Part shown: piece after piece, positions 8,647-24,830 of the stretch
How the letters are laid out: every line of letters starts with the position of its first letter
Numbering within the stretch: the first letter of the stretch is position 1
Origin: Methanomassiliicoccales archaeon
GTDB lineage: Archaea > Thermoplasmatota > Thermoplasmata > Methanomassiliicoccales > UBA472
Reading direction: 5' to 3'
NCBI GenBank assembly: GCA_028682895.1
Contig: JAJRAK010000029.1
Coordinates: 7,156 to 71,155, forward strand
DNA length: 64,000 nucleotides
Translations under genes and position numbers: made by a program
Notes under the pieces: model-generated
Told to the model about the DNA's origin: nothing
Database searches by the model: none
The model's input: the letters and a program-made list of their open reading frames with translations, nothing else

Positions 8647-9501
8647 TCAGACCAACCTAATCACCGATACTGTCCACTGCACCCCTAAAAGCCCGACGGT
8701 GGTCCAGATGACCTCCTTGCGGACCTCTTCCCCGGAAGTTATGAACGAATAGCTGCCGACGCCGCTGCTCTCGTCGACCATCCTGTGGGCGATGGCCTTG
8801 ATCTCAGTGAAGTTCTCATATATGGGGTCGGTGAAGGTGTTCCTTCCGATCTGGCCCTCGTCAATGTCGTAAAGGACGACGCCGTCCTCCTGCAAGGTCA
8901 TGATGCTTAGTTCGTCGTTCGCCTGTGCCTCGGTGATGTTGCCGATCATCCAATCAGGACGGAACATGGGGGCGATGGTTCCGTTGATCTTGCCCTCATC
9001 ATCGAAGACCGGGTAGACCATGTACACTGCGTAGTATCCCTGCACCACCCAATCGAGGGGACTGATGGCGGACCGTCCTTGTTCCAACGCCAGTTCCATG
9101 GTGTCCTGATAGCTGATGTCCATCCCGATGATGTTGGAGAACGATGATGGTTGAACGGTAAGGATGGTGCCGTTGACGTCGGTCGTGAGGACGCTCACAA
9201 TATTAGATGAAACGTTGGCGACGGCCCTGAGGACCATGCCAGCATTACTATCGTTCAGATCGCGCCCCTGAAGCTCGGTGGCCGCCTCGGATGTGGCATG
9301 ATCTATCAGGACGAGCTCCTGCTGGATATCGGCAGAGACGTTCACCAGGTATTGGGTCGCCTCCACCTCCAATATCTGTTCGTCCAGGTCGTCGGAGACC
9401 GATGCCATGCCGCCCCATACCATCGCCAGAGCACCTGCTTCAACGATCACCAGTGCCACGAGTATTGCTAGAATGACATTGATATTCTTACTGTCGCCCA
9501 T
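8647..9501 (-). CDS. Membrane-anchored extracellular Cache/PDC-like sensor-domain protein with no output domain
   Basis: Single N-terminal TM (INVILAILVALVIVEAGALAMVW), then ~250 aa resembling the periplasmic Cache fold (tandem alpha/beta modules with GY.AVYMVYPVFD..G..NG). The protein ends right after the sensor region. Confidence 0.55.
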   Translation of the reverse strand: MGDSKNINVILAILVALVIVEAGALAMVWGGMASVSDDLDEQILEVEATQYLVNVSADIQQELVLIDHATSEAATELQGRDLNDSNAGMVLRAVANVSSNIVSVLTTDVNGTILTVQPSSFSNIIGMDISYQDTMELALEQGRSAISPLDWVVQGYYAVYMVYPVFDDEGKINGTIAPMFRPDWMIGNITEAQANDELSIMTLQEDGVVLYDIDEGQIGRNTFTDPIYENFTEIKAIAHRMVDESSGVGSYSFITSGEEVRKEVIWTTVGLLGVQWTVSVIRLV

Positions 9502-9657: not shown

Positions 9658-10848
9658 TCACCTATCCTTCTGATGAGAGAGCCAGGTCTCTACCGCCCAG
9701 GTCAATGCCAATGCCACTATTGTATAGACCACCAATGCGGTCAGCTCCCCCATGCATCCATCCCAGCCCATGCCACTGACCATTACCGAACGGCCACCGA
9801 CGATGGCATAGGTAAGAGGATATAGGTACGAGATCGGCAGCAGGTATCCGGGCAAAGCCGATACGGGGATGACTATGCCCCCGAGCAAGATGGCCGGATA
9901 GATCAGCAGGGGCAGTATCACCATTGTCACCTGCGGAGCCCGGCCGTTGATGATGGACAGGAACCGGCCCATGCTGAAGCTGGCCAATGCCAATATGGTG
10001 AAGACCGTGAACGATGTCAGGTCGTCCCCGACCGTCATCACGCCATAGAGGTCGAACGTGATCAGCGCAATGGACGAGAGCACCATACCGATCACGCAAG
10101 CACGGACCGACTGGGCGAAGAGCGTCTCCCCGAGCGTATGATCGTCATCCTCCCTCTTGCCATTGGGGGACATCATCGCCGAGAGCAGTACGAGCATGAA
10201 TATCACCAGGCCTGCGATGGCCGGCGCCATGAAATCACGGGAGTCCGTCCCTTCGCCGTAGACCACGTCGATGGAAAAGCTCACTGGCTGCGATAGATTG
10301 AACATCGCCACCAGCACCTTTTGCATATCACGCTGGACCTCGATGCAAACAACACTGTACACCGAAGGATTGCTGCCGTCGACATATATCACCAGCGGAA
10401 TGGGAGCGCTGGAAGTGCCGTTCTTGGCATTTGTCAGCCATATCATGATGTCCCTGGTGAAGTTCTCGTTGAAGACCACGACCGCTTCGACATCACCGTC
10501 ATCCAGAGCGTCCAAGGCATCGTCAATGCTCGATCCGCCCTCGACCGTCACATCAAGCGTGGTGGTGTTTGACATGACGCCGATCACCGCGGATGAGATG
10601 GACATGTTGTTGAACCCCTGGTCCATGTCGACGACGTCGATGGGAATGTCACTGGTCGGTCCTTTCTCGAATGCCAGTGTAAATATGTTCAGTATCAGAA
10701 ATGTCATAACGGCGAGCACGGCAAGCTGTTTCAGGAACCTGCCGTCCATCTCATTCTTGATCGCGCCCTTCAACCCACTGTATCTCATCTTTGCACCATT
10801 CCTTCGTAATAGTAGGTAGGCCGCCGTTCTAGCTGCCGACCGGGCCAT
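9658..10848 (-). CDS. ABC-2 type transporter permease (YhhJ-like, large N-terminal extracytoplasmic loop); no ATPase gene adjacent
   Basis: One N-terminal TM, a ~150-aa loop, then about 5-6 C-terminal TM segments typical of ABC-2 permeases. ATG 10848 lies ~23 nt from the TATA-like box at 10865-10876. Confidence 0.7.
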   Translation of the reverse strand: MARSAARTAAYLLLRRNGAKMRYSGLKGAIKNEMDGRFLKQLAVLAVMTFLILNIFTLAFEKGPTSDIPIDVVDMDQGFNNMSISSAVIGVMSNTTTLDVTVEGGSSIDDALDALDDGDVEAVVVFNENFTRDIMIWLTNAKNGTSSAPIPLVIYVDGSNPSVYSVVCIEVQRDMQKVLVAMFNLSQPVSFSIDVVYGEGTDSRDFMAPAIAGLVIFMLVLLSAMMSPNGKREDDDHTLGETLFAQSVRACVIGMVLSSIALITFDLYGVMTVGDDLTSFTVFTILALASFSMGRFLSIINGRAPQVTMVILPLLIYPAILLGGIVIPVSALPGYLLPISYLYPLTYAIVGGRSVMVSGMGWDGCMGELTALVVYTIVALALTWAVETWLSHQKDR

Positions 10849-10876: not shown

Positions 10877-10897
10877 TTGTAACTTTGAGAGTTACAA
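10877..10897 (+). promoter_or_regulatory. Perfect 8-bp inverted repeat TTGTAACT-N5-AGTTACAA, candidate TrmB operator
   Basis: The arms at 10877-10884 and 10890-10897 are exact reverse complements. The repeat lies between the TATA-like box and the trmB ATG, over the expected transcription start. Confidence 0.5.
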
Positions 10898-11676
10898 TGT
10901 TTGAAAAACTGGTCAAGGAGCTCATGAAGTTAGGACTGTCCGAGTACGAAGCGAAGGTCTACTCCGGGCTCCTAGGCCTGGGAGAGGGAACTGCCAGGCA
11001 GGTCCACGAGGCCAGTGATGTACCTAGACCGAGGGTCTACGACATCCTGGAGTCCCTGGAGATGAAAGGTTACGTCGAGGTCTGGCAAGGATACCCGAAG
11101 AGCTATAGGGCCATTGACCCGGGGGACCTGATGATATCCCTGAGAGAAGGACTGGAAAGGTCCATACACCTGGCCACCGCGGAACTGAACGACCTCAGCC
11201 TGCAGGCGAAGAAGCGAACGTTCCCCATATGGCACATCAAGGGGGAGTTCGGCGTACGGAACCAGGTGAGAACGATGATCGCCGAGACGAACGACGAACT
11301 GCTCGTCATCTGCACCCGCTCATCGACCATGAGGAAGATATCCAAGGACCTGGTGAAAGTAGCGGAGAAGGCCGAGGTGCGATGCTTGTTGACCGATGGT
11401 GCCGATGCTTTCAGGAAGGCGATGCCGGGCGTCACCATAATCGAGCCAACGAGATTCACCGATCCATTGGCCAAGGCCTATTTCGAGGCGTACAAGGGCA
11501 AGATCGAGAAGAACGACGAAAGGTACCGACCTGAGCTTCTCATGGTGTTCGATGGGACCCGGTCATTGCTCACATATCAGGCCAATGATGAATGGACCGT
11601 CATCGTCTTCGAGCTTCCGCTGATAACGCAATTGCAGAAGAGCGCCATCGTGAACATGATGGAAGAAGGGCATTGA
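10897..11676 (+). CDS. TrmB family transcriptional regulator
   Basis: N-terminus MFEKLVKELMKLGLSEYEAKVYSGLLGLGEGTARQVHEASDVPRPRVYDILESLEMKGYV is the TrmB winged-helix signature. I chose ATG at 10897 over the TTG at 10885 because of the TATA spacing. Confidence 0.85.
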   Translation: MFEKLVKELMKLGLSEYEAKVYSGLLGLGEGTARQVHEASDVPRPRVYDILESLEMKGYVEVWQGYPKSYRAIDPGDLMISLREGLERSIHLATAELNDLSLQAKKRTFPIWHIKGEFGVRNQVRTMIAETNDELLVICTRSSTMRKISKDLVKVAEKAEVRCLLTDGADAFRKAMPGVTIIEPTRFTDPLAKAYFEAYKGKIEKNDERYRPELLMVFDGTRSLLTYQANDEWTVIVFELPLITQLQKSAIVNMMEEGH

Positions 11677-11709: not shown

Positions 11710-13818
11710 TCATTTGGCCAAGCCATCTTCATCCCTGAAATAGAACATGCCCTTAGGCACGGTCATAAGGAAACGCACACCACGACCTGGCTCACCATGC
11801 TCTTCTATCGATATCCCCGTGATCTGAAGTATTTCCTTGGTCAGGAACATGCCCTGGCCTGTGTTCCTGCCCATCCCCTGCTTGAACAGGTTCTTCTTGT
11901 CCTCGAATGATATCCCTTCCCCATCGTCCTCATAGACCATTTGGAGCGTCCCATCGTCCTTGGGCTCGTATCTTAGGGATATCGACTTGACGCGGCCACC
12001 GTGACGGAGGGAGTTCTCCAGCAGATTATAGAAGACCTTTTCCAGCATCGTGTCGGCGAATACGTTCAACGGCCGTTGTTCGGTCTTGATATCGATACCG
12101 GTGAGGTCCAATTGGATGGTGGCCCGTTCGAACACCGTACCGACGTTCTGCCATACGGGCGCCTTCACCCCCAATTGTTCGTAGTCCTTGGCGAACTCGA
12201 TCAGTTCCATTATGGATTGGGTGTTCTTCTCCAATTTCAGTAGAATCTTCGTTTGGCGCTCCTTGTCCTCGACCCCTTCCAGTAATTGTATGTAGCTCCC
12301 TACGACCGTGAACCTGTTCAACAGGTCGTGCCGGGTGATGCCGGAGATGAGGCTCAATTTCTTGTTAGCTGCTTTCAACGATTCGGCCATCTTTCGGTCG
12401 CTGATGTCCCTGATAAGTAGCAGCATGTAGTCCTGATCATCGACCGTGATAGGTATGGCCGCCAGATATGCCCAGATACTTTTATCGCCCTTACTTTTTA
12501 CGAGGGTCTCGAAATCATTCACCGCACCCTCGTCCACCAATCTGCTCGAAAGGACCTTTATGTCATCGAGAGTGACCAGGTGGTCTGTCACCTTGGTCTT
12601 GAGAAGCTGCTCGTGTTCGCCCTGCAGCAGCTTGTCCATCTCAGGGTTCAGATAGACGAACGAGCCGTCGTTCCGATCGATGAGCGCCAAGGGCAACGGT
12701 ATGTTGTCGAGGAGCGAACGATATCGCAAGGCCTTGTGTTGGATGGCCGTCTCCAGGTTCTTGTGGTCGGTGATGTCGCGCATGTACAGTAGCGTGCCCA
12801 TGCTCATGCCAGCCTTGTCCTTCATCGCTATCGTGTGCGCATCGAAGAACCTTCGGAATCCTTCCTTGCCCAATTCGATCTCGACCTTGCCGGGCGGTGC
12901 CTTCGAGAGCAGACCTATGAGCCCCGGTTCGGAGGCGAACAGGTCATTCGCAGATGCTCCATTGAACGCCTTGGCATCGATCCCGATCACCTCACAGGCG
13001 GCCCGGTTCGCGTCAAGAACCCGTCCGGAACCATCTATCAGGAAGGATGGATCAGGAGTGTTGTCCCAGACGACGCTCCTGGCGATCGGGGTGATGTCGA
13101 ACAGATGATATCGGAACATGGCGAACATCAGGATGACGCCCATGAAGATGAGCAGGACCGGGGCGAAGGACATTCCGGGCCCGGGAGTGATGCCGACCAT
13201 CAATGATGCATCGCCAATGAAGGGAAGGGCGATGCCAACCGCCACCATGATGTCCCGCCTGCGGTAAATTCCCTTGACCTGGCCCATGTGGCGGACGAGC
13301 AGCGCGGTGGACGCGATTATTGCCAAGTAGGAATAGATCGCGGTGGAATAGAATACAGGGCCGAACCCGTTCGTCAGTACCAAAGAGCCGTCGTTGGATG
13401 AGAATACATATTCTGTGAAGAACAGCTGATGATAGCCGTTCGTGATCAAGATGATCATATTGACGATGGGTAATATGAACACGCTGAGACAAAGTCTGTA
13501 GGTGGGCTTTCGGGACGGATCGATATAGAAAATGACCGTCAGCAGTGCCATCACCGGTATCAGGATACTGAACGAATATTGGACCAGTTGCAGAACGATC
13601 TTGGTCGATTCCTCTGTCGACAGCAATATCAACGAGCTTGAAAGGGACCATCCGGCACTGAGCACCATCAAGCCAATGAATGGTATGGCCGAATGGTTCG
13701 CCCGATAGCGCCAAGAGTATGTGGCCAGGAACAGCAGGATCAATGTCGCCATGATCATTACGGTCATGAATACTGTTGTATCGATCGTCGCAGTGAGATC
13801 GATCTGCGGGGTTGCCAT
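11710..13818 (-). CDS. Sensor histidine kinase: N-terminal ~7-TM domain, two PAS-like domains, H-box (ITRHDLLN), HATPase_c
   Basis: Multiple N-terminal TM helices. H-box SGITRHDLLNRF. N-box FYNLLENSLRHGG. G-boxes DDGEGI and GQGMFL. ATG 13818 sits ~27 nt downstream of the TATA-like ctcTTTATAC (13841-13850, minus strand). Confidence 0.85.
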   Translation of the reverse strand: MATPQIDLTATIDTTVFMTVMIMATLILLFLATYSWRYRANHSAIPFIGLMVLSAGWSLSSSLILLSTEESTKIVLQLVQYSFSILIPVMALLTVIFYIDPSRKPTYRLCLSVFILPIVNMIILITNGYHQLFFTEYVFSSNDGSLVLTNGFGPVFYSTAIYSYLAIIASTALLVRHMGQVKGIYRRRDIMVAVGIALPFIGDASLMVGITPGPGMSFAPVLLIFMGVILMFAMFRYHLFDITPIARSVVWDNTPDPSFLIDGSGRVLDANRAACEVIGIDAKAFNGASANDLFASEPGLIGLLSKAPPGKVEIELGKEGFRRFFDAHTIAMKDKAGMSMGTLLYMRDITDHKNLETAIQHKALRYRSLLDNIPLPLALIDRNDGSFVYLNPEMDKLLQGEHEQLLKTKVTDHLVTLDDIKVLSSRLVDEGAVNDFETLVKSKGDKSIWAYLAAIPITVDDQDYMLLLIRDISDRKMAESLKAANKKLSLISGITRHDLLNRFTVVGSYIQLLEGVEDKERQTKILLKLEKNTQSIMELIEFAKDYEQLGVKAPVWQNVGTVFERATIQLDLTGIDIKTEQRPLNVFADTMLEKVFYNLLENSLRHGGRVKSISLRYEPKDDGTLQMVYEDDGEGISFEDKKNLFKQGMGRNTGQGMFLTKEILQITGISIEEHGEPGRGVRFLMTVPKGMFYFRDEDGLAK

Positions 13819-13938
13819 TACCAATCTATTCGATTTTTGTGTATAAAGAGTGAACTACACGAACATTTGATTGGTACTATTATCCTGAACGTCCGACCGC
13901 ATCGCATTGAAATGATGGCCGGCCCCTCGTGCGGTTAA

Positions 13939-15666
13939 TTACATCACATACAGAGCTGGCCGGTCCATATCTGGCATACTTTGATCGTTCGTTGGGACAG
14001 CCCTGAAACGACCTTTGGGCACCAGTATCTTGAACGTTACCCCTTTCCCTTCCTTCCCTTCCTCGCTCACACGGATCCCGGTCATGTCCAATATCTCCCT
14101 TATCAGGAAGAAACCGTACATGTGGCTGCCTCCGAAGCTGTTATGGAAGAGCAATAGTTTCTCATGCGCGGGTATGCCGTTCCCGTCATCGGTATAGACC
14201 AGTAGCAGGTCATCCCCTACGTAGCGCTGTGTGAGGTCTATCCTGGTCACATGACCACCGTGGCTCAGGGAGTTCTCCAACAGATTGAAGAACACCTTGT
14301 CGAGCATGGGGTCCGCCAGTATCTCGACCTTCACGGCCGATCTCACCTCCACACCTAAGAGCCCGAACGATGCCGCCACCGATGAGAACGAATAATCGAC
14401 GTCCAGCCACCGCGGGTCCCTTTCCCCCAGCTCCTGATAGTCCTTCATGAAGGATATCTGAGCGTCCATGGCGTTGAGTATCTCCTTGAACTTGGAGAAA
14501 CGAACTTCGGGGATGGAAGATTCCTTTTCCATAATCGTCAAACACTCGCTCATCGCCATGACCTCATTGGCAAGGTCATAACGACTGATGCGGTTCATTA
14601 TGCTCATCTTCTTCAATGTTCTTGCCATTCGATTGGAGGCGTTCTTGATATCAGTGATGTCATGGATGATCATCACGTGACCTACCACCTGACCCTTCGT
14701 GTTCTTCATCTTGTTGACGCTCAGATTGAACGACCGGCCTGGGACCAGTTCCACGTCCGACATGGACGCGTTCATCGACTCGGACCCGTTCCCGAACAGA
14801 TGGGATGGTATCGTCGGTAGAAGCTCGTTCACCGGGACGCTCATGCGATCGTTGGCATTGACGCCCAACAGCGAGCTGGCGAAGGTGTTCATGTACATGG
14901 GTCGGTTCTGATCGTCCAATACCAGCATCCCGTCCTTTGACGACCTGACGACGGCGTCGATGGTGAAGGGCACCGCACGGAACATGTCATAGTACATGAT
15001 CCCGAGGAATATCACCAGACTGCTGACGAGTATGCTTGCGATGAATATTATCGTCTGAGGCAGGTCGTGCCAGAACGGCATCAGTAGAGACATTAATATG
15101 GTCGGCGCGAGGAGCGATATCAAAAGCACCTTGTGCTGAGCCTGCAAGACCTTGGCGGTGGTGATGTGACTTCTCCATATTATGCTGCAAGCTGCCACCA
15201 TCTCACCGATCATCAGAATTACGATCGGATAGAACAGGACGCCGTGCTCGGCATCGAAGGACCTCAGCGGATCATCGGCAAGGACCACGCTGGTGTATAC
15301 CAGTTCATGATAGGAGTTTGTCGCCATCGCTGCGAGGAGACCGAAAGAGACCAGTGTCAGCGCTAATACGATCTTGTTCACCAGGTTCTTGTCCATCCCT
15401 GTGAACTGCATCACGAACATCAGCGACAGCAGAGGGATGAAGAGATTGCCGAAGTATTCCAGGTTGTTCCAGATCAATTTGCCTTCGATCGTAGGAGAAT
15501 AGACATCAGACACGTAGCCCAGCATGAACAGGATCACGACCATCTGAATGATGGCATACGTATAGTGATAGGGTTGCCGACCTAGCCTCAGCACCATCAG
15601 TAGAAGGAATACGGAGAATACCGCGGTGGTACTGATGAAAAGGGCCAATATCGTATCGATGTCCAT
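13939..15666 (-). CDS. Sensor histidine kinase paralog (7-TM, PAS, HATPase_c) with Tyr in place of the phospho-acceptor His
   Basis: Same architecture as the neighbouring kinase. N-box FFNLLENSLSHGG and DDGNGIP are present. The H-box position reads ISRYDLAN, with a TAT codon at about 14578-14580. Confidence 0.85.
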   Translation of the reverse strand: MDIDTILALFISTTAVFSVFLLLMVLRLGRQPYHYTYAIIQMVVILFMLGYVSDVYSPTIEGKLIWNNLEYFGNLFIPLLSLMFVMQFTGMDKNLVNKIVLALTLVSFGLLAAMATNSYHELVYTSVVLADDPLRSFDAEHGVLFYPIVILMIGEMVAACSIIWRSHITTAKVLQAQHKVLLISLLAPTILMSLLMPFWHDLPQTIIFIASILVSSLVIFLGIMYYDMFRAVPFTIDAVVRSSKDGMLVLDDQNRPMYMNTFASSLLGVNANDRMSVPVNELLPTIPSHLFGNGSESMNASMSDVELVPGRSFNLSVNKMKNTKGQVVGHVMIIHDITDIKNASNRMARTLKKMSIMNRISRYDLANEVMAMSECLTIMEKESSIPEVRFSKFKEILNAMDAQISFMKDYQELGERDPRWLDVDYSFSSVAASFGLLGVEVRSAVKVEILADPMLDKVFFNLLENSLSHGGHVTRIDLTQRYVGDDLLLVYTDDGNGIPAHEKLLLFHNSFGGSHMYGFFLIREILDMTGIRVSEEGKEGKGVTFKILVPKGRFRAVPTNDQSMPDMDRPALYVM

Positions 15667-15950: not shown

Positions 15951-17249
15951 ATGTCCAAGAACGACCCGTTGGATCTCATGATAGAGGAGATAGCTCGCAT
16001 CCACAAGATCATGGGGCCTGACAAGGAAGGATACCGTCACGGAAGAAGGCTCATGCTCGACGCCGCCGACCAGCTGGACTACAACACCGGTTGGGCGCTC
16101 AGGACCATGCGCAAGGCGCGAAGGTCGTTCGAGGACGAGTGCCAGCTGATACGACGCTACAGCTCGTTCAAGAAGAAGTGGGCCCTCATGGACTCTTTCC
16201 ATTTCGGGGAGGAGGAAAAGGGACTGGAGCGTGAGCTGAACCGATTGCTTGGCAACGGCGATTTCGACGATTGCGAACCAGTGCTGGCAGATCTGGAGAG
16301 GTTGTTGGACCAGGACGTCTCGGACCATATCGAGATCGGGCTGCTGATGGAGGTCGCCGACCCGAACGTACAATTGGGAAAAGGGACGACCCTGACAATA
16401 ATGATGCACAACCACAGTGCCTTTCCCATACATGTGGACGCCCTGACCGGGCGCTCGGAACAGGCAACGATAAGCGTCCTCGATTTCTACAAGGGGGAGA
16501 TGCCATCGGCCAATGACCGCGGTTTCCAATTGAACGTCATACCAAAGGTCGAGGGCGACATCGCCGTAGAGGTAGAGACGACCATCGAGAACGATGGCCG
16601 CATGATTATCGTTCGCAAGTGCTTCTCGCTCAAGGTGTCATCCCCGCCGCAGGTGATGCAGGCGGTCCAGACCATCGCTCCTAATGATGTGCGGTACGCG
16701 AGACCGGCCTTCGCCATCCAGCCCCGCACCTCATCGTACGACCCATTGGAACTGGTGTCCTCAGGCACCGTGGACCAGTGGGCCGACTGCATAGAGGTCT
16801 TCGCCAGGGTGAGGACACCGATCGACCTGTCGGACATCGTGAAGAAGGAACCGGAGTTCATCAAGGCGGACGGGTACGCCAACCTGTTCAGATCATTGCT
16901 GGCGATGCCTTACGACCGTTCCATCGATTGGGACGTGTGGTTCAACCAGGCCGGTTTCGTAGGAGAGGACTTTACCAAGCGGTGCGCCAAGCTCCTGTTC
17001 CGCATGAGCTTCGATCGCTCGGTGGAACTGGAGATGGACGGCAGCGTGGGCAGCTCCAACATCGAGAATCTGATCGGGGCCATGCAGATCGCCTCCGGGG
17101 ACGTCAAAAGGGAGGAGCGGTCGCGCAAGTCGTGGAAGGTGGACGGTGAGATAGACGGGAACGCATTCTCGCTCACCGTAGAGAAGTCGGTAAGAAAGGA
17201 CGAGGCCGGGAAGGCCAGGGCGGCGATGTTCCGCATCGTCTCAGGCTGA
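15951..17249 (+). CDS. Hypothetical protein, 432 aa, no recognisable domain
   Basis: Long ORF with ordinary protein-like composition. Its 3' end overlaps the convergent 265-aa gene by 9 nt. Confidence 0.6.
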   Translation: MSKNDPLDLMIEEIARIHKIMGPDKEGYRHGRRLMLDAADQLDYNTGWALRTMRKARRSFEDECQLIRRYSSFKKKWALMDSFHFGEEEKGLERELNRLLGNGDFDDCEPVLADLERLLDQDVSDHIEIGLLMEVADPNVQLGKGTTLTIMMHNHSAFPIHVDALTGRSEQATISVLDFYKGEMPSANDRGFQLNVIPKVEGDIAVEVETTIENDGRMIIVRKCFSLKVSSPPQVMQAVQTIAPNDVRYARPAFAIQPRTSSYDPLELVSSGTVDQWADCIEVFARVRTPIDLSDIVKKEPEFIKADGYANLFRSLLAMPYDRSIDWDVWFNQAGFVGEDFTKRCAKLLFRMSFDRSVELEMDGSVGSSNIENLIGAMQIASGDVKREERSRKSWKVDGEIDGNAFSLTVEKSVRKDEAGKARAAMFRIVSG

Positions 17250-18038
17250 ATACATCCTGTCGATGATCTCTTTTGCCTTCTTCGAACTGCTGGCATCTCC
17301 CGTCGTCGAAGAGTCCACCAGTGAGCTTACCGCCCTCCAGCCCTTCTGAGGGACCGTTAGCGGCAACTTCGTCAGCACTAGGTTGCACTGCGTGTCCTGC
17401 AGGGACAGTGGCGGTTCGCTCAGGAATGCTATCGGCACGATGCCCAGATTTATGTCCAGGAACTTGGACAGCATGTACCCCAAACGTATCCTGTCCTTCT
17501 GCTCCGTGCCGCGGCAGGTGACCACGAACTTGATCTTCGGGTCCTTGGTGTAACCGTCGACGAGCCGGTTCAGGGTCGCCTTGGAGATGAGCGGCCTCAA
17601 TCCCTCTATCTCCTTCTCGAACGGGACCGGTTCCCATGATAGCTCCATTGGTGCCATCTCCCCGAGCGGGATGCCGTTGGCCTTCTCGTGCTCGTCTATC
17701 GCCCTTTCCACGTCCTGATATGAAAGGCCTTGCTCCAGGGCGCTGCGCGGGACGAGCAGCGTGTGCGTCAGTATCCCGCTCCTGCCCTTTTCGTCCAGCT
17801 TGCTGCGGCGGAATATCTTGGAGAAGTACACCCCTTCCGAACCTGAGGCGGAAGCAACGAGACGAGCCTCGCTGTTGTACATGTCCTCGGCGCTCACGTA
17901 GGCCGGGTCTATCGGGATGTAGTAGCCCAGGAACCTCTCGTACTCCTCGGGGTTGATGTTGGCGGACCTTGCCCGCTTAGCATAGCCCTTCTTCGGCACT
18001 GGACCGTAGATGAAATGCTCCACCTTGACGGTGCTCAT
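17241..18038 (-). CDS. Hypothetical protein, 265 aa, translationally coupled to the upstream GTPase gene
   Basis: The ATG at 18038-18036 overlaps the TGA of the 348-aa GTPase gene (ATGA). No domain I can name with confidence. Confidence 0.7.
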   Translation of the reverse strand: MSTVKVEHFIYGPVPKKGYAKRARSANINPEEYERFLGYYIPIDPAYVSAEDMYNSEARLVASASGSEGVYFSKIFRRSKLDEKGRSGILTHTLLVPRSALEQGLSYQDVERAIDEHEKANGIPLGEMAPMELSWEPVPFEKEIEGLRPLISKATLNRLVDGYTKDPKIKFVVTCRGTEQKDRIRLGYMLSKFLDINLGIVPIAFLSEPPLSLQDTQCNLVLTKLPLTVPQKGWRAVSSLVDSSTTGDASSSKKAKEIIDRMYSA

Positions 18039-19081
18039 CCCTTTACGCCCCTGAACTCCTGGTCCTCCTTGACCTCGTCAGGCATCTTATGGGCGATCTC
18101 CCGGAAGCGGTCGATGAAGCCCTTGTACTCATCGTAGGAATAATCGAGCTCGTGGCTGCCCTTCTCCGTCCTCAGACGGGGTATGACCTCCCCGTCCTCG
18201 TTCTGCTCGGTGTGTATCTCACTGAAGAAGTACGCGGACCTGTCGAAGGAGACGTTGGCGATCGCGGCACCCTTGGACAAGGCCATGGTGTCCTTGTAAT
18301 ACTTCATGAGGATCTCCTTGGCATAGTCCTCCTTGGTGAAGTCCGCCTTCTTCTTCAACATCGCGCGCAGGCCGCGCTCGTCGTTGCCAAGGTCGTCGAA
18401 CGTGTCAGGCCATCCGTTCGCCTTTATGATCTCCTTGTCCAGGAGGTCGAACTTGGTCAGCACGAATACGGGGTAGATCTTGGCCTTGTCCTCGTCCTTG
18501 TCATAGACCTGGGACTTGTACTTGGAAACGGCGGATATCAACGTGGCCATGAACACGTCGTAGTTGCGCATCTCGATGAAGCGCTCCGAACGGGCCTCGG
18601 CGTTGATCTTGCTCAGGTCGATGAGGAACACCAGGACGTTGCACTTCAAGAGCTCCTGGAACGACGTGCTCAACGAATCGAAGTTGAACTCACCCTTGTA
18701 CGTGCCGGTGGATATGGACTCGCGGTACTGCTCGATGGAGCGAAGGATGTCGAGGTCCTCACCGGCGATATCGTATACGGTGAAGTCCATTATATCGAAG
18801 CGGGAGGACGCCTTCTCTCCGACGGCGAAGAATCTGCGGTAGCCGTACTTGAACTTGTACTTGGCCATGTTGCCCTTCAGCGTGGCGTCGGCCCACTGCC
18901 CCTTCATGAGGTTGGTGCGGTGGTTGCCGAAGATGCTGGTGAAGGAGGGGTCCGTGGTGAAGCGGAACTCACCTGGACCGGAGTTCTCCCTTGAGTTGGT
19001 ATAGCGGACCTGTGACTCATACAAAAGACTGAGGAAGATCGTCTTCCCGCAGGATCTGTCCCCGAATATCGCGACCGGCAT
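18035..19081 (-). CDS. P-loop GTPase (TRAFAC/Ras-like motif set), 348 aa, unassigned family ('GTPase-A')
   Basis: G1 GDRSCGKT at residues 7-14, G3-like VYDIAGED, G4-like VLTKFDLL. A TATA-like box at 19105-19118 lies ~31 nt upstream of the ATG. Confidence 0.75.
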   Translation of the reverse strand: MPVAIFGDRSCGKTIFLSLLYESQVRYTNSRENSGPGEFRFTTDPSFTSIFGNHRTNLMKGQWADATLKGNMAKYKFKYGYRRFFAVGEKASSRFDIMDFTVYDIAGEDLDILRSIEQYRESISTGTYKGEFNFDSLSTSFQELLKCNVLVFLIDLSKINAEARSERFIEMRNYDVFMATLISAVSKYKSQVYDKDEDKAKIYPVFVLTKFDLLDKEIIKANGWPDTFDDLGNDERGLRAMLKKKADFTKEDYAKEILMKYYKDTMALSKGAAIANVSFDRSAYFFSEIHTEQNEDGEVIPRLRTEKGSHELDYSYDEYKGFIDRFREIAHKMPDEVKEDQEFRGVKG

Positions 19082-19104
19082 GATGATTGTGAGAGCCTGG
19101 CGGG

Positions 19105-19118
19105 AATAAATATATTTT
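19105..19118 (-). promoter_or_regulatory. TATA-like box for the GTPase-A / 265-aa operon
   Basis: The minus strand reads AAAATATATTTATT, centred ~31 nt upstream of ATG 19081. Confidence 0.4.
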
Positions 19119-19310
19119 CAATGTAACAGGTCGAATAGAAATGCTTGCGAAATGAGGTCGGTTCGGCATGCCAGCCCTCGAACTTCCATTGGGAATGTCC
19201 GTGTTTCATGCCATTCAGGCGGCACGGATGCATTGAATAACAAAAAACACATTAACCTCCCGAGACCGGTGTATCCTGGCCTCATAACAGGACGTTCGGG
19301 AACGATCTTC

Positions 19311-20141
19311 ATGGACCTTTTCGGCGGGAAGAGGACGGACAAGGCGCAGGAGTCTAAGCGCATCAAGGACATCCAGCAGTTGATCCGCGATGTCGCCGGG
19401 GATGTGGACGAAGAGCGCGTTGACGTCACCGAGGTCCATGAGATGATGAAGGCCAAGCAGGCGCAACAGACCGCCGAGACCAAGGAGGTCCAGGCCGCTC
19501 CAGCACCGACCCCGAGGACACAGCCTGCGATCGAACCGCGGAAGATCGAGCCGGCCCCAGGGAAAGAGAGCGTGACCGATGCCACCAGGACGAGCAAGGT
19601 CCCGGAAGAAAGTGGCCTAAAGCTTCCACCCAAGGGATACGTCGAGAGCGTCCCGGAAGAAAAGAGGAACGAACCCGTCCCGCCAGTGAAATTGGGGACT
19701 GCCCCTGAACTTAAGAAGGTGGAGCCGACCCTGGATGTCAAAAAGGTCGAGCCGGAGAAGCGGCGTTCCTATGAACCGGTCTTCTGCATCCATTGTGGCA
19801 CGAGGCTGGCCGAAGATGGTTCCGGATGCCCGAAGTGCCCGGTAAAAAGAGGGTCGGCAGGACCGCCGGTCAGCATGCCTCCGAGGCCTTCGCCTGTTCC
19901 TCAGCAACAGCCGAGGACCGTACCTATGGCTCCAGCACCGCAACGACCGGTGTTCTGCATATATTGCGGCACACGGTTGCCACAGGACGGTTCGGGATGC
20001 GCCAAATGCTTCAGCCAGAGATGGCGCAGATGCCAGAGCTGCGGTGCTTGGGTCAGGGCCACGGACATATCATGTCCGGTCTGTCACAGGGTCCTGTCTA
20101 TCGAGCCGGGAAGGAACGATGACCGTTATATGAGGCGTTGA
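19311..20141 (+). CDS. Triple zinc-ribbon protein with charged N-terminal helix and Pro-rich linker, 277 aa
   Basis: Three CxxC-x10-12-CxxC units: FCIHCGTRLAEDGSGCPKCP, FCIYCGTRLPQDGSGCAKCF and CQSCGAWVRATDISCPVCH. I chose the start at MDLFGGKR (ATG 19311); the longer ORF from 19152 would run into the divergent promoter. Confidence 0.65.
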   Translation: MDLFGGKRTDKAQESKRIKDIQQLIRDVAGDVDEERVDVTEVHEMMKAKQAQQTAETKEVQAAPAPTPRTQPAIEPRKIEPAPGKESVTDATRTSKVPEESGLKLPPKGYVESVPEEKRNEPVPPVKLGTAPELKKVEPTLDVKKVEPEKRRSYEPVFCIHCGTRLAEDGSGCPKCPVKRGSAGPPVSMPPRPSPVPQQQPRTVPMAPAPQRPVFCIYCGTRLPQDGSGCAKCFSQRWRRCQSCGAWVRATDISCPVCHRVLSIEPGRNDDRYMRR

Positions 20142-20147
20142 AGGATA

Positions 20148-21068
20148 TTATGATCTCGTCCTTCGGACCTTGGTGCCCGTCTGCCCTTCCGCCGTCCTTC
20201 TGATGACCTTGATCAGAGATCCGTATCCGCCGACGGCATAATCGATGCACACCTGACCCTTGTCGGTGACGGAGACTGGCACGAGATCACCTTCGCTCCC
20301 TTCGGTCCGCATCCCACTGACGATCACCTCGACCGTCCCCTTCATCCCTTTCGGCCGCTGTTCCTCGAGCACCTTGGCCACCTCAGGATAGTTTGCTCTC
20401 AGGAACTCGCCTGCGGTCTTTTGAACATCCTTATCAGCGATATCGATCCTGCCCACCAGGTCGAACTTGGTCAGAACGATCACCGGACAGGGGACGCATT
20501 TGCATGAACCATCCCTGATATCCCTGGCCTTGAGCCTCATCATGACACCGATGAGCGAGGCGTTGAGGGCATCCGCCTTTTGAAGGGACGACCGGTCGTC
20601 GCCCTTTCCTGCCTTCACCATGCTGGCATCGAGAAGAAGAACTACGATGGTGCCCCGGAGCGCGTCCAAGAGGTCCTCGCTGAGCGCCCCTGGGTCGAAA
20701 TGACCGCTGTCGGGGCCGGTCATCCCTTCCAAGGCCCTGGCATCCCTTTTTCCGACCTCGACCGCCTCGACGGTGACAGTACTGAACTCCTTGGATGGTA
20801 GCAGCCCGAGGAAGCGGCCTTTTCGAAAGCCGATGTCCATCGTACAATCGGCAATGCCCTGCTTCCGTTCGTTCGAAGGCCATCTTTTGGAAATAAGGTC
20901 AAGCCTGACGTCCCCCAGGCATTTGGCCGTACGAGGATCGCAGATGAAGCGGACCTCATCCTTCCCCTCGTTCCCTTTGGCAGTGGTCATTTGCACCAGC
21001 GTCTCATATAGAAGACCGAGGAAGACCGTCCTACCGCACCCTTCCACCCCGACGACCGTGACCTTCAT
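20148..21068 (-). CDS. Paralog of GTPase-A with degenerate catalytic motifs, 306 aa ('GTPase-B')
   Basis: N-terminus MKVTVVGVEGCGRTVFLGLLYE aligns to MPVAIFGDRSCGKTIFLSLLYE of GTPase-A, with Walker Lys replaced by Arg. VLTKFDLV is retained. There is no DxxG at the aligned G3 position. ATG 21068 lies ~29 nt from the TATA-like box at 21093-21102. Confidence 0.7.
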   Translation of the reverse strand: MKVTVVGVEGCGRTVFLGLLYETLVQMTTAKGNEGKDEVRFICDPRTAKCLGDVRLDLISKRWPSNERKQGIADCTMDIGFRKGRFLGLLPSKEFSTVTVEAVEVGKRDARALEGMTGPDSGHFDPGALSEDLLDALRGTIVVLLLDASMVKAGKGDDRSSLQKADALNASLIGVMMRLKARDIRDGSCKCVPCPVIVLTKFDLVGRIDIADKDVQKTAGEFLRANYPEVAKVLEEQRPKGMKGTVEVIVSGMRTEGSEGDLVPVSVTDKGQVCIDYAVGGYGSLIKVIRRTAEGQTGTKVRRTRS

Positions 21069-21092
21069 CCAGGTAAGGATGTGCGTGTGTTC

Positions 21093-21102
21093 GTTTATAT
21101 GA
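21093..21102 (-). promoter_or_regulatory. TATA-like box for GTPase-B
   Basis: The minus strand reads TCATATAAAC, centred ~29 nt upstream of ATG 21068. This supports the internal start over the 358-aa ORF. Confidence 0.4.
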
Positions 21103-21332
21103 TTAGGTCGCCACCCCTGCCAATGTATTCGTTCTAGAACGCTAGGAGGCTGCCGATCAGAAAGTACGGGCCTGGACGTCCATCGCGATGATGTCGGTCC
21201 TGCCGGACATCTCGATCGTATCAAAGGCTGGGCTACCTATCTTGCCCGGGGACGTGTTCATGGACCGCCCTCCTAGAGCATTAAAAAGATTCACAATCAT
21301 TAAACACTCAAAAGGGTGATGATAACACTGAC

Positions 21333-23243
21333 ATGAAGCTCCTTGGCAGAGTGCTCTCACAATATCTCATAATCGGCCTTGTTGTGATATTGATAATGAG
21401 CGCTGTGCTCTCTTCCATCCTAAGGGACCAGGAGATCGATGATATCTCAGATGATACCATGGAATCACTGGAGTCCATCGATTTCGCCCTGAGCACGTTC
21501 ATAGAGAGCGTGGAACAGGATGTATTGGGGCTATCGATGTACGAGGACGTCCTCACCCCTTACGATGACAACTTCACCAGTTTCCTGAACGCCACCGGGG
21601 CGAACTTCACCTATTCTGACGACCCGCTGGAGCTGAAGATCGTGGAGATCTTCAGATCCTTCCAGCAATCTCACCCTTACGTCAACTCCGTATACATGGG
21701 AAGGGAGAACGGGGCCTTCGTCAGGTCATACCCCCGGGCAGAGCCGACGCAATACGACCCCCGGAACAGACCATGGTATGAGATCGCGTTGGAGAACCCG
21801 GGCGAGATAGTGAGGACCGCCCCATATTCGTCCGTGACAACTGATGATGTGAACATCGGCATCGTCATCACCATATACGATACGAACGAGACCCTCCTTG
21901 GCGTGGTCGGATGCGATATCACCCTCGAGGAACTGACCGATTATGTCGTTTCCACCGGGGGGACCAACGACGGGAGCATGATACTCATAGATGGATCGGG
22001 GACCATCTTGGCATATGAGAACGAATCGTACCTGTTCGAGAATATCAGCGCTGTACTGGGCCTTTCGACGAAAGACATCCTGGATGCTGAGAACGGAAGC
22101 ATCCATGTGAACGATTCCTATCTGGTGTTCTACACCTCCCCACAGCTGGGATGGAAGCTCGGGAGCATGATCCCGTCGGTCGTCATAGAGGAGAAGATCA
22201 ACGACCAGGTGATGACCACGTTCTTGTTCGTCATACTGACGCTCGCCCTCATCAGCATCATCACCCTCATCCTGATCCATTACACCATCATCCGACCGCT
22301 GGGCGCCCTGACCGGTACGAGCGAGATGATCGCTGAGACGGGTGATCTGAGCAACAAGATAGAGGTCCATGGATCGGGGGAGATCGAGATACTGGGCCGG
22401 TCCTTCGCTTCGATGATGGAAAGGTTGAGCTCGGAGAAGGAAAAAAGGACCGAGGTGCTCAAAGAGCTGGAGCTCTATCGTGACCATCTGGAGGAGATCG
22501 TCGAGGTAAGAACGCACGAGCTGGAGAAGGCCAAGGAGGCGGCTGAGTCGGCCGACCACCTTAAATCGGCCTTCCTGGCCACCATGTCCCACGAGCTTCG
22601 CACCCCATTGAACTCGATCATCGGCTTCTCCGGCATCCTGTTACAGGAACTGGCCGGACCATTGAACGAAGAACAGAGGAGACAGCTCAGTATGGTGGAG
22701 GGAAGCTCCGAGCACCTCCTTGCGCTCATAAACGATGTGCTGGACATATCCAAGATCGAAGCGGGCCAGCTGACCATCTCCATGGCCCCGGTGAGCGTTC
22801 CCGATTCCATAGATAAGGTGGCGCGCACCATCCGTCCTTTGGCCGAGCGGAAGGGACTAAAGCTCGAGACCGTTGTAGATCGAAACATCAGCAATATCAA
22901 GGGAGACGGCCGCAGGGTGGAGCAGGTGCTCCTCAACCTGCTATCGAACGCTATCAAGTTCACCGACCAAGGCCGCGTCGGTGTGGAATGCGAGCAGGTG
23001 GGTGACGAGATCGTGATCAAGGTCAGCGACACCGGCATCGGCATCAGCAAAGAGGACCAGAACAAACTGTTCAAGCCGTTCAGCCAGGTGGAGTCGGGAT
23101 TGACCAGGCACTATGATGGTACTGGACTGGGACTGTCGATAACCAAAAAGCTCGTCGAGATGATGGATGGCAGGATAAGCATGGAGAGCGAACCGGGGAA
23201 GGGGAGCGTGTTCATCGTTACCTTCCCTGTCATAAGAACGTAA
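21333..23243 (+). CDS. Sensor histidine kinase (TM, dCache-like domain, TM, HAMP, HisKA, HATPase_c)
   Basis: Cache-like block [16 protein letters not shown]...RPWY...[12 protein letters not shown]-box [17 protein letters not shown]-box [13 protein letters not shown]-boxes DTGIGI and GTGLGLSI. Confidence 0.9.
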
Positions 23244-23298
23244 AAAATCAGCAAATGATTTATAAATATTACAAGGCATGATAATAATGGGGGTTGGG

Positions 23299-23694
23299 TC
23301 CGTGAACAAAACGAAGATACTGTACATAGAGGACAATGACCAAAACTTCTATCTGGTCCATTTCATCCTAAATGCCAATGGTTTTGATGTTCTCAGAGGT
23401 CGCGATGGCAAGGAAGGTATCGACCTGGCCACGACCATATCACCGGACGTGATATTGCTGGACATACAGTTACCGGTCATGGACGGATATGCTATCGCCC
23501 GCGAGCTGAGAAGACTTCCGGCGACGTCCGTCACACCGATCATTGCCCTCACCTCCTATGCTATGGCCGGGGACCGCGATAAGGCCATGGCCGCCGGATG
23601 CACTGGATACATAGAGAAGCCCATCAACCCGAAGACGTTCATCGACCAGATCAGCAGATACCTGTCATCGCACAATACGGGAGTTGACCGATGA
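23299..23694 (+). CDS. Single-domain response regulator (CheY-like receiver)
   Basis: KILYIEDND...VILLDIQLPVMDG...IIALTSYAM...GYIEKP. A GTG at 23299 lies ~30 nt downstream of TTTATAAATA (23259-23268). The ATG at 23278 is an alternative start. Confidence 0.85.
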   Translation, partial: SVNKTKILYIEDNDQNFYLVHFILNANGFDVLRGRDGKEGIDLATTISPDVILLDIQLPVMDGYAIARELRRLPATSVTPIIALTSYAMAGDRDKAMAAGCTGYIEKPINPKTFIDQISRYLSSHNTGVDR

Positions 23695-24830
23695 ACAATG
23701 CTCTCATCGTCGACGACAACGTACAGAACCTCTACATGCTGGACACGATCCTCAGATCGGCCGGTTACCATGTAGTGATGGCAAAGAACGGCGAAGAGGC
23801 GCTGGATGCTGCCAAGAAGAACCAGCTGGACCTCATCATCTCGGACATCCTGATGCCGGTCATGGACGGCTTCCAGTTCTGTCAAAGATGTAATGCCGAT
23901 GATTCGCTCCGGGACATCCCGTTCATTTTTTACACTGCGACGTACACGGACGAGAAGGACGAGAGGTTCGCCCTGGGCCTGGGAGCGGACAGGTTCCTGA
24001 TCAAACCGATGAAACCGGACCAGTTGCTCGCTGCTATCAAGGAGGTGCGGGAACGACCGCATAGCGAGAGCAAGAAGGTGGCCGAGAACGATCCCACCGT
24101 TCTCAGGGAATATGGCGATATACTGTTCCATAAACTGGAAAAGAAGGTCATGGAACTGGAGAAGGACATCGCCGAGCGCAAGGCGGCCGAGACGGCGTTG
24201 CGGGAGAGCGAGGAGCGCTTCAGGAAGGTCTTCGAGAGCGGTGCGGTCGGGATCGCCATCATCGATCTTTCTGGCAGAGTGACCCGCGCCAACGACGAGC
24301 TATGTGATATGCTGGGGTACGTGGATACCGAGCTGATAGGGATGGACCTGCTGGACATGGCCCATCTGGACCACCGCCAGGACCTTAAAGAGAGCAGCCA
24401 ACGGATGAGGGCGGGTGACATACCGGCATACACCATGCAGGCGCGCTTCATGCGGAAGGACGGTTCCATCGTCTGGTCCCTGCTGAAGGTGTCCATAATG
24501 AACGATGCCGAAGGCCATGCGCAATATTATCTCGCCTTCGCCAGCGATATCACCGAGTACAAGATAATGCGGGAAAGGGAAAGACAGGCCCTGTCCCAGA
24601 TAGAGAGGAACCTGGAACAGCTGGCCACATTGAACGATCAGATACGGAACCCGCTATCGATAATCGTAGCGTTGCTCGCCTGCGAGGAAAGACCTGATAC
24701 CAAACAGAAGATACTCGACGCCGTGCGTTCCATCGACGATATCGTACATGCGCTGGACATAGGATGGTCGGAATCGGCCAAGGTCCGTGAGTTCCTGGAA
24801 AAAAACCAACAGATCAACAGGAGACTGTAG
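23691..24830 (+). CDS. Response regulator receiver + PAS domain protein
   Basis: Receiver motifs ALIVDDN, LIISDILMPVMDG and FLIKP, then a coiled linker and a PAS block (FESGAVGIAIIDLSGRVTRAN...GY...). The ATG overlaps the upstream TGA (ATGA). The stop is TAG at 24828-24830. Confidence 0.85.
   Translation: MNNALIVDDNVQNLYMLDTILRSAGYHVVMAKNGEEALDAAKKNQLDLIISDILMPVMDGFQFCQRCNADDSLRDIPFIFYTATYTDEKDERFALGLGADRFLIKPMKPDQLLAAIKEVRERPHSESKKVAENDPTVLREYGDILFHKLEKKVMELEKDIAERKAAETALRESEERFRKVFESGAVGIAIIDLSGRVTRANDELCDMLGYVDTELIGMDLLDMAHLDHRQDLKESSQRMRAGDIPAYTMQARFMRKDGSIVWSLLKVSIMNDAEGHAQYYLAFASDITEYKIMRERERQALSQIERNLEQLATLNDQIRNPLSIIVALLACEERPDTKQKILDAVRSIDDIVHALDIGWSESAKVREFLEKNQQINRRL

Follow-up and report, generated by a model that had tools for sequence, protein, structure and literature searches.

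A five-gene cluster of a Methanomassiliicoccales archaeon resembles a minimal DO-GTPase/GAP1-type GTP switch system

We analysed a stretch of 64,000 nucleotides (nt) from contig JAJRAK010000029.1 of a Methanomassiliicoccales archaeon (assembly GCA_028682895.1, positions 7,156 to 71,155 of the forward strand), which is called the window throughout. It carries a cluster of five genes that encode two paralogous GTPases (GTPase-A and GTPase-B), a protein of 265 amino acids (aa; p265), a 432-aa protein (orf432) and a zinc-ribbon (Zn-ribbon) protein. We consider it likely that these five genes form a divergent GTP switch system of the DO-GTPase/GAP1 type, which is probably related to conflict or stress. 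Judged from the sequences, the cluster appears to be a minimal archaeal version of such a system, closest to the GAP1-N2 type and previously unrecognised. Systems of this kind had been predicted before (Kaur, Burroughs, Iyer and Aravind, eLife 2020, PMC7159879). The archaeal branch, the C-terminal domain (C-domain) of orf432 and the predicted TagF/longin-like fold of its GAP1-like protein are additions to that prediction. The five genes were called as open reading frames (ORFs) at the following positions of the window.

15951-17249, plus strand: orf432, 432 aa, ORF call
17241-18038, minus strand: p265, 265 aa, ORF call
18035-19081, minus strand: GTPase-A, 348 aa, ORF call
19311-20141, plus strand: Zn-ribbon gene, 276 aa from the ATG at 19311, with the ORF open from 19152
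20148-21068, minus strand: GTPase-B, 306 aa, ORF call

Results

Recurrence of the gene system in archaea

Database searches were performed to find relatives of the cluster. GTPase-A had 43 relatives, all of which were unnamed and all of which were archaeal where a source was given. A scan of the genomes of 185,579 species (one genome each) gave 28 loci, all archaeal, which belonged to Methanomassiliicoccales, other Thermoplasmatota, Desulfurococcaceae, Bathyarchaeota and Nitrososphaerota. A metagenome scan gave 79 further loci, and 91 distinct loci were obtained in total. Hidden Markov models of the GTPase, p265 and the orf432 C-domain were mapped onto all ORFs of all loci. A locus was eligible for the counts of p265 and of a second GTPase if the main GTPase had 900 nt or more on each side (60 loci), and for the count of the C-domain if its flank measured 4 kb or more (28 loci).

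In 58 of 60 loci, a p265 homologue was located within 1.2 kb of the main GTPase and shared its strand, and one further locus carried a frameshifted pair. At this locus (L010, 8001-9839), GTPase-A and p265 were read as one 612-aa ORF with the C-terminus of the GTPase in another frame. The probable cause is a frameshift, through sequencing error or in a pseudogene, rather than a true fusion. The sole eligible locus without p265 was L067 (2876-5549), in which the 1.6 kb 3' of the GTPase held only short ORFs. A second GTPase paralogue was adjacent in 24 of 60 loci, and a protein ending in the orf432 C-domain was present in 25 of 28. The core of the system is the GTPase with p265, and all five window genes are recurrent components. 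The combination described in the initial annotation, a canonical GTPase with a degenerate paralogue, a tightly coupled partner and a Zn-ribbon protein, was correct and recurs in other archaeal lineages. The genes co-occur far beyond this genome, and the cluster is more than a set of chance ORFs because it is conserved in 91 distinct related loci.

The core of GTPase-A, p265 and orf432 was well conserved within Methanomassiliicoccaceae, with 75-87% identity of GTPase-A. The flanking genes differed among the loci. One neighbour of the system was a 1599-aa protein with 13 fn3 repeats (L046, 434-5233). Other neighbours (L015, 9992-13072; L048, 10817-13528; L054, 9626-11656) were proteins with ARM/HEAT or TPR repeats fused to Ser/Thr kinase domains and one ARM/HEAT/TPR protein with the orf432 C-domain at its end.

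GTPase-A and its degenerate paralogue

GTPase-A and GTPase-B are true paralogues, since BLASTP aligned them over the full length with an E value of 2e-32 and 26% identity. The blocks GxxxxG[KR]T[IV]FLxLLYE, RF..DP and VLTKFDL, on which the initial annotation had based their paralogy, were all found in both proteins. GTPase-A has the P-loop GDRSCGKT, the G3/Walker B motif DIAGED and the G4 motif TKFD. A beta-rich C-terminal domain follows, with the motif LDYS..EY..FI. By these motifs, GTPase-A is predicted to be a catalytically intact core TRAFAC GTPase of the DO-GTPase-like family. In GTPase-B, the P-loop is GVEGCGRT with a K-to-R replacement, and the G3 position reads EVGKRD without DxxG, while the G4 motif TKFD is kept. 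GTPase-B is a degenerate paralogue of GTPase-A and probably a pseudo-GTPase subunit.

A motif census showed the same pattern in the relatives. The main GTPase had invariant GxxxxGK[TS], DxxGED and [TSA]KFD motifs at every locus. In three different lineages, the second paralogue had no DxxG, its P-loop Lys was often replaced and TKFD was usually retained. This recurrent pairing of an intact with a degenerate GTPase suggests an asymmetric dimer. In a rough neighbour-joining tree, the A-class sequences formed one clade and the degenerate paralogues were placed outside it on long branches, where long-branch attraction is possible. The tree is compatible with an old duplication that was followed by relaxed or altered constraint on GTPase-B, and it is consistent with the proposal of the initial annotation that an old duplication has stayed linked.

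The relation of GTPase-A to known GTPase families was examined using profile and structure comparisons. DO-GTPases were described as TRAFAC GTPases whose Walker B motif contains a conserved Glu (PMC7159879). This diagnostic Glu after the Walker B glycine (DxxGE) is present in GTPase-A and missing from GTPase-B, and GTPase-B gave no match to the Pfam DO-GTPase models. Among 35 relatives of GTPase-A, 18 matched Pfam DO-GTPase2 at E ≤ 0.01 with a best value of 1.6e-6, all at or below the 27-bit cutoff, and the relative P0024 had a precomputed DO-GTPase match. An hhalign comparison of the GTPase-A family with an archaeal DO-GTPase1 that passed the Pfam cutoff gave a probability of 91.5% and an E value of 8.5e-7. 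The aligned region reached beyond the P-loop and covered G4 and the distinctive C-terminal domain.

The AlphaFold2 model of GTPase-A had a pLDDT (predicted local distance difference test) of 83 and a pTM (predicted template modelling score) of 0.84, and its C-terminal domain was modelled as a beta-meander with a helix. When this model was searched with Foldseek, YcjX was the best match in the PDB (E 2.4e-5, probability 1.0), followed by septins, atlastin and G-alpha. No Rag/Gtr was found in the top 50 Foldseek matches. A PDB sequence search with GTPase-A gave no match, and no Pfam match to Ras, Arf or Roadblock was obtained among the five proteins. The DxxGE motif, the weak DO-GTPase2 matches, the YcjX match and the hhalign result place GTPase-A as a divergent DO-GTPase member. 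In a later publication of the same school (PMC11237479), both the YcjX structure paper and Kaur et al. are cited where a DO-GTPase-family protein is described. Two GTPase paralogues were reported in 38% of DO-GTPase systems (PMC7159879).

p265 as a probable GAP1-like partner

At 50% identity, the p265 family made up 91 clusters in a collection of 1.84 billion representatives. The residues G18, P42, R86, H92, R183 and W234 were invariant or nearly so. R86 and H92, which were invariant, lie within the motif D-E-x-G-R-x-G-x(3)-H and are candidate contact or catalytic residues.

The link to GAP1 came from a family of proteins of about 650 aa. An hhalign comparison of the p265 family with this family gave a probability of 90.7% and an E value of 1.3e-6 over 228 columns. 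The whole length of p265 was aligned with residues 12-259 of the 650-aa protein, which is its GAP1-N2/GAP1-M region. In Pfam, the 650-aa family matched GAP1-M with an E value of 1.3e-4 (22.6 bits against a cutoff of 24) and GAP1-N2 with E values of 0.013-0.02. Three of its genes, in L029, L057 and L061, were flanked by DO-GTPase1/2 genes that scored 28-33 bits against a cutoff of 27. The GAP1 gene lies directly downstream of the DO-GTPase in the systems predicted earlier (PMC7159879). We conclude from these alignments that p265 is probably a minimal GAP1-like protein, equivalent to GAP1-N plus GAP1-M without GAP1-C. The resemblance of the cluster to the GTPase-centred conflict systems of Kaur et al., which the initial annotation had suggested without assigning it, was borne out by DxxGE, the sub-threshold DO-GTPase2 matches, YcjX and the homology of p265 to GAP1-N2 and GAP1-M.

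The 650-aa proteins belong to a second operon on the opposite strand, which adjoins the genes for GTPase-A, p265 and the C-domain protein (L029, 9832-17056; L057, 3676-7427; L061, 4853-10075). In this operon, DO-GTPase1/2 genes surround the GAP1-N2/GAP1-M-like protein, which has a C-terminal transmembrane (TM) region. These three loci carry two related GTPase/GAP1 modules back to back.

The AlphaFold2 model of p265 had a pLDDT of 83 and showed two domains. The order of elements in the N-domain, beta-beta-alpha-beta-beta-beta-alpha-alpha, was that of a longin domain, and the C-domain was alpha/beta. In Foldseek, the best match was TagF of A. baylyi (9T0N; E 1.2e-4, TMq 0.51, 248 columns), and TagF of P. 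aeruginosa was next. These were followed by chains of SEAC-EGOC, SEA, FLCN-FNIP2-Rag-Ragulator and GATOR1-KICSTOR over approximately 130 residues, with E values of 0.01-0.08 and probabilities of 0.3-0.84. In these SEAC, GATOR1 and FLCN-FNIP2 complexes, longin-domain subunits, to which the matched chains may correspond, act as GTPase-activating proteins (GAPs) of Rag. No structural match to p265 was found in BFVD, and a PDB sequence search with the p265 profile gave no match, TagF included. A TagF preprint described the same layout of an alpha+beta and an alpha/beta domain, with a C-domain without known homologue, and neither longin nor TagF was mentioned by Kaur et al. (PMC7159879). The modelled fold is compatible with a role of p265 as a GTPase-binding regulator. 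We take it as a structural lead, not as a demonstrated relationship.

Natural fusions of the p265 module were found in relatives. The module was fused to TIR_2 at either the N- or the C-terminus (L020, 9038-10258; P0192; P0251), to a HerA/DUF87 ATPase (L011, 2474-4342; P0175; P0186; P0252) and to an AAA+ domain with a RuvB-like winged helix and DUF835 (P0172, P0173, P0211). The TIR, HerA and AAA+ parts may provide the effector or motor output of the system.

orf432 and the Zn-ribbon protein

orf432 was divided into an N module (1-125) that looks helical, a middle module (approximately 121-250) and a conserved C-domain (approximately 250-432; window 16698-17249) with the motifs GT..[EQ]W and GY.NL. 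The initial annotation had listed this protein as an orphan. This did not hold, as its C-domain is a near-constant component of the system. The C-domain was always located at the extreme C-terminus of the carrier protein. The N-terminal parts of the carriers varied by lineage and consisted of CARDB/TRAP-beta sandwiches, PKD with a TM segment, a Zn-ribbon with TM segments, coiled coils, ARM/HEAT repeats or a kinase-like region with Zn-ribbons. All three orf432 modules were found at the C-terminus of a 1488-aa protein (L042, 6449-10915; L044, 3283-7749). Besides these modules, this protein contains several Zn-ribbons and a region with a weak likeness to protein kinases.

In L030 (4902-6521; same as L049, 4184-5803), the C-domain was fused to a GTPase paralogue in a protein of 539 aa, with the GTPase at 1-330 and the C-domain at 367-531. 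Fusion of two parts elsewhere suggests that they work together (Rosetta-stone evidence). The fusion is Rosetta-stone evidence for a putative functional link between the GTPase and the orf432 C-domain. At L030, p265 comes after three GTPase paralogues in tandem, and a 1217-aa protein, likewise with the C-domain at its end, comes before them.

The orf432 C-domain matched no Pfam family, GASH included. On this sequence evidence, it appears to be a new conserved domain. Several other assignments were tried and rejected. An origin of the C-domain as a split-off GAP1-C was rejected against the full 650-aa GAP1-like family, since hhalign gave a probability of 0.1%. The C-domain profile hit RNase H3 (4PY5, E 2e-4) and UFL1 (E 3e-3) in the PDB, and these hits were unreliable, with incompatible folds and K/E-rich segments. 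A CARDB-like nature of the middle module was not supported, as jackhmmer gave no connection to the CARDB repeats of L013, L019 and L020.

The Zn-ribbon protein has three CxxC...CxxC ribbons and matched Pfam DZR (E 1.9e-6, 28.4 bits against a cutoff of 27.3). Its homologues were located divergently upstream of GTPase-A in all Methanomassiliicoccaceae loci, and unrelated Zn-ribbon genes were found at the equivalent position in L042-44 and L057/58. N-terminal Zn-ribbons were reported on 60% of DO-GTPases (PMC7159879). By analogy, the Zn-ribbon protein is likely a stand-alone trans counterpart of the Zn-ribbons fused N-terminally to bacterial DO-GTPases.

Gene junctions, putative promoters and flanking genes

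The stop of GTPase-A and the start of p265 share 4 nt (ATGA). Convergent pairs are formed by orf432 and p265, with a 9-nt overlap, and by the Zn-ribbon gene and GTPase-B, with a 6-nt gap. The Zn-ribbon gene is divergent from GTPase-A. Its start at the ATG at 19311 agrees with the N-termini of its homologues. The ORF of GTPase-B is open back to a TTG at 21224, but a start at the ATG at 21068 agrees with the N-terminal motif M-x-V-x-[IV]-x-G of the family. Two putative promoter elements were located.

19105-19118, minus strand: TATA-like box AAAATATATTTATT of GTPase-A, AT-rich, approximately 24-37 nt 5' of the ATG
21093-21101, minus strand: TATA-like box CATATAAAC of GTPase-B, AT-rich, approximately 25-33 nt 5' of the ATG

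The box of GTPase-A is located inside the 229-nt divergent intergenic region that it has in common with the Zn-ribbon gene. The five ORFs, the ATGA overlap, the 6-nt convergent gap and the TATA-like boxes were all present in the sequence as the initial annotation had described them. Its statement that the proteins lacked a placement was true for four of the five. orf432, p265, GTPase-A and GTPase-B had no match above the curated cutoffs of Pfam, NCBIfam or PADLOC. A scan of the five proteins against PADLOC-DB v2 gave chance-level matches only, to the Zn-ribbon protein (E 0.024 and 0.28).

The genes on either side are those that the initial annotation had named. On one side, the cluster is flanked by two tandem HisKA_7TM-PAS histidine kinases (11710-15666, minus strand). 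On the other side (21333-24830, plus strand), a dCache-HAMP-HisKA kinase is followed by two response-regulator genes. Upstream, the window encodes a Cache-like sensor protein that stands alone (8647-9501), an ABC-2 permease (9658-10848) and a regulator of the TrmB family (10885-11676). In a 1993-aa protein (1265-7246, minus strand), repeats of the NosD/right-handed beta-helix type precede CarboxypepD_reg domains and many Ig-like domains (Big_7, Big_13, fn3, PKD), and this is presumably a large cell-surface protein.

Discussion

Proposed mechanism and alternative explanations

In the mechanism that we propose, GTPase-A and GTPase-B would form an asymmetric dimer of an active GTPase and a pseudo-GTPase, which would serve as a GTP-dependent switch. 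p265, presumably translationally coupled to GTPase-A, would dock on this dimer through its longin-like domain and would set or read the nucleotide state, possibly through R86 and H92. orf432 may tie a lineage-variable recognition or scaffold module to the core by means of its constant C-domain. The Zn-ribbon protein may provide in trans what bacterial DO-GTPases carry in cis. The output would probably be a conflict or stress response; the p265 module of relatives is fused to TIR, HerA or AAA+. For the version in the window, the output may be the assembly of a complex or an unlinked effector.

A patchy distribution over phyla and very small families are hallmarks of conflict systems, and both favour a DO-GTPase/GAP1-type switch with such a role. 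The effector fusions of p265 and the hypervariable partner proteins, which are typical of conflict systems, favour it as well. FNIII-repeat proteins and kinases fused to Zn-ribbons were listed among the themes of GAP1-N2 systems (PMC7159879). The neighbours with fn3 repeats, with kinase and TPR/ARM parts and with kinase-like/Zn-ribbon parts recall these themes; in the window itself, the partner is orf432, which has no Pfam match.

Several results weigh against this explanation. GTPase-A and p265 are below every Pfam curated cutoff, and for GTPase-A, the DO-GTPase2 model reached 15.3 bits (E 0.016) against a cutoff of 27, at the N-terminus only. When 47 members of the p265 family were compared with Pfam, no GAP1 or TagF model matched even at E ≤ 5. 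The link between p265 and GAP1 runs through one intermediate family with sub-threshold GAP1-N2/GAP1-M matches and through gene context. The window lacks a recognisable effector enzyme, none of the PADLOC models was matched and the flanks of the cluster are histidine-kinase genes, not defence genes. No relatives were found among the IMG/VR viral contigs. The conservation within Methanomassiliicoccaceae would also be expected of a housekeeping role. Dimerisation, GAP activity and an anti-virus role are purely inferred here, and in the literature searched, no experimental study of DO-GTPase/GAP1 systems was found, only computational predictions.

Part of the same evidence would fit a housekeeping GTPase switch that acts in polarity, in membrane or cytoskeleton remodelling or in nutrient signalling, like MglA/MglB or Rag. 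p265 would then be a GAP or a guanine nucleotide exchange factor with no conflict role. The longin-like order of its N-domain and the Foldseek matches to chains from SEAC, GATOR1 and FLCN-FNIP2 agree with this, the pair of an active and a degenerate paralogue recalls heterodimeric GTPases, and the lack of an effector in the window and the well-conserved core among Methanomassiliicoccaceae point in the same direction. Cytoskeleton-like themes (tubulin, HSP70) were also described in GAP1-N2 systems (PMC7159879). However, the distribution is very patchy for a housekeeping function, with 28 genomes among 185,579 species across phyla, and the p265 family is tiny. The TIR, HerA and AAA+ fusions and the hypervariable partners are typical of conflict, and the flanking genes vary among loci. 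Moreover, no Roadblock, MglB or Ras-like Pfam match was obtained, and no Rag GTPase was among the top 50 structural matches of GTPase-A. We regard a housekeeping switch as unlikely.

The position of the cluster between two HisKA_7TM kinases and the operon of the dCache-HAMP kinase and response regulators raises another explanation, in which the five genes are an accessory module of the two-component genes and modulate the 7TM and Cache histidine kinases. Kinase-family genes also adjoin the system at L001, the closest genome locus. However, the kinase flanks were not kept in the Methanomassiliicoccales loci L006, L007 and L009 or in any distant locus, whereas the core of GTPase-A and p265 was kept, and the system is present in genomes without such kinases nearby. 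Co-orientation and overlaps are found within the cluster only and none with the kinase genes, and we consider an accessory role very improbable. It might also be argued that the genes are chance neighbours or partly spurious ORFs without a joint function, as four of the five proteins have no curated-family match. However, each protein has conserved homologues, the gene order is kept across phyla, natural fusions join the GTPase to the orf432 C-domain and p265 to effectors, and the structure models of GTPase-A and p265 are confident. This explanation is refuted by the neighbourhood statistics, and we give it almost no weight.

A DO-GTPase/GAP1-type switch with a probable conflict or stress role remains our preferred explanation, and it can be extended to a broader proposition that we hold to be rather doubtful. 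Here, p265 and GAP1-N+M would be prokaryotic GTPase regulators made of a longin and an alpha/beta domain, with the TagF fold, that act on an asymmetric active/pseudo-GTPase heterodimer, perhaps via Arg86. The DO-GTPase/GAP1 systems would be mechanistic, possibly evolutionary, counterparts of the eukaryotic Rag-GATOR1/FLCN modules, and TagF would be of GTPase-regulator ancestry. The branch found in archaea would also constitute a new system of defence or stress response, with GTP-gated TIR, HerA and AAA+ versions.

Significance of the archaeal branch

DO-GTPase/GAP1 systems are a large predicted class among prokaryotes. The cluster would be the most compact DO-GTPase/GAP1 version seen in this analysis, consisting of an active GTPase, a pseudo-GTPase, a 265-aa GAP1-like protein and a C-domain partner. 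Because it is compact, the archaeal branch is an attractive minimal system for biochemistry and structure work. DO-GTPase systems had been noted 'in a few archaea' (PMC7159879). With the present loci, the DO-GTPase/GAP1 class reaches at least four archaeal groups, by sequences that current Pfam models miss. The p265 model offers a first structural hypothesis for GAP1, as a possible longin-like and TagF-like GTPase-binding module, and the natural TIR, HerA and AAA+ fusions offer testable outputs. If a conflict role is true, a GTP-gated immune system would join the sparse catalogue of archaeal defences.

Comparison with known systems

The cluster was compared with five known systems. The initial annotation had noted a likeness to MglA/MglB, whose GTPase MglA is small and Ras-like and whose partner MglB is of the Roadblock/LC7 type (Zhang et al. 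2012). This likeness was not confirmed, since neither a small Ras-like MglA nor a Roadblock/MglB domain was present; neither Pfam family was detected. The GTPases of the cluster have 306-348 aa, DxxGE in GTPase-A and extra domains, and the archaeal system includes further constant components. All that remains of the likeness is the general logic, namely a GTPase with a co-transcribed regulator of the longin/roadblock structural class.

The Rag/Gtr GTPases with their longin GAP complexes (GATOR1/SEACIT, FLCN-FNIP) are similar in having a paralogous GTPase pair and a longin-type domain followed by an alpha/beta domain. However, the matches were weak and covered approximately 130 residues, and GTPase-A is not Rag-like and has no C-terminal roadblock domain. 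There is no evidence for common descent of p265 with these complexes.

T6SS, the type VI secretion machinery, is a system of diderm bacteria. Its accessory regulator TagF (PDB 9T0N, 2QNU, 6IZ8) has the two-domain architecture of the p265 model. However, this likeness is structural only, as no sequence match was obtained by profile search or Pfam. The targets of TagF in T6SS assembly are Fha and Hcp, and a GTPase partner of TagF is not known. The scanned genes that flank the cluster included none of a T6SS, nor were such genes found near the related loci.

YcjX is a bacterial protein that is paired with the membrane protein YcjF and not with a GAP1-like protein. This stress-induced Ras-like GTPase (PDB 6NZ4-6) was the best solved-structure match of the GTPase-A model. 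However, the template modelling (TM) scores were low (0.30-0.37), the identity to GTPase-A was approximately 12%, and YcjX is longer, with approximately 455 aa.

The DO-GTPase/GAP1 systems of the GAP1-N2 type differ from the cluster in several features. The GTPases and p265 of the cluster are below the Pfam cutoffs of DO-GTPase (PF19975/PF19993) and GAP1. Its GAP1-like protein has approximately 265 aa and lacks GAP1-C and a TM or helical region, so the three-domain N-M-C architecture is incomplete. The Zn-ribbons are on a separate protein near both GTPases, which is analogous but not identical to the N-terminal fusion. The orf432 C-domain is an extra constant component, the second GTPase is systematically degenerate, all 28 genome loci are archaeal, and the version in the window has no recognisable effector. 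On the other hand, both have a TRAFAC GTPase with Glu after the Walker B glycine and two linked paralogous GTPases, and in both, the gene directly downstream of the GTPase encodes a protein that is homologous to GAP1-N2 and GAP1-M. Both are associated with Zn-ribbons. Variable non-enzymatic partners that bear beta-sandwich, FNIII or kinase parts and, in some members, effectors fused to the GAP1-like protein may be further likenesses; these were seen in relatives of the cluster, the window itself having orf432 only. The distribution is patchy and mobile-looking in each case.

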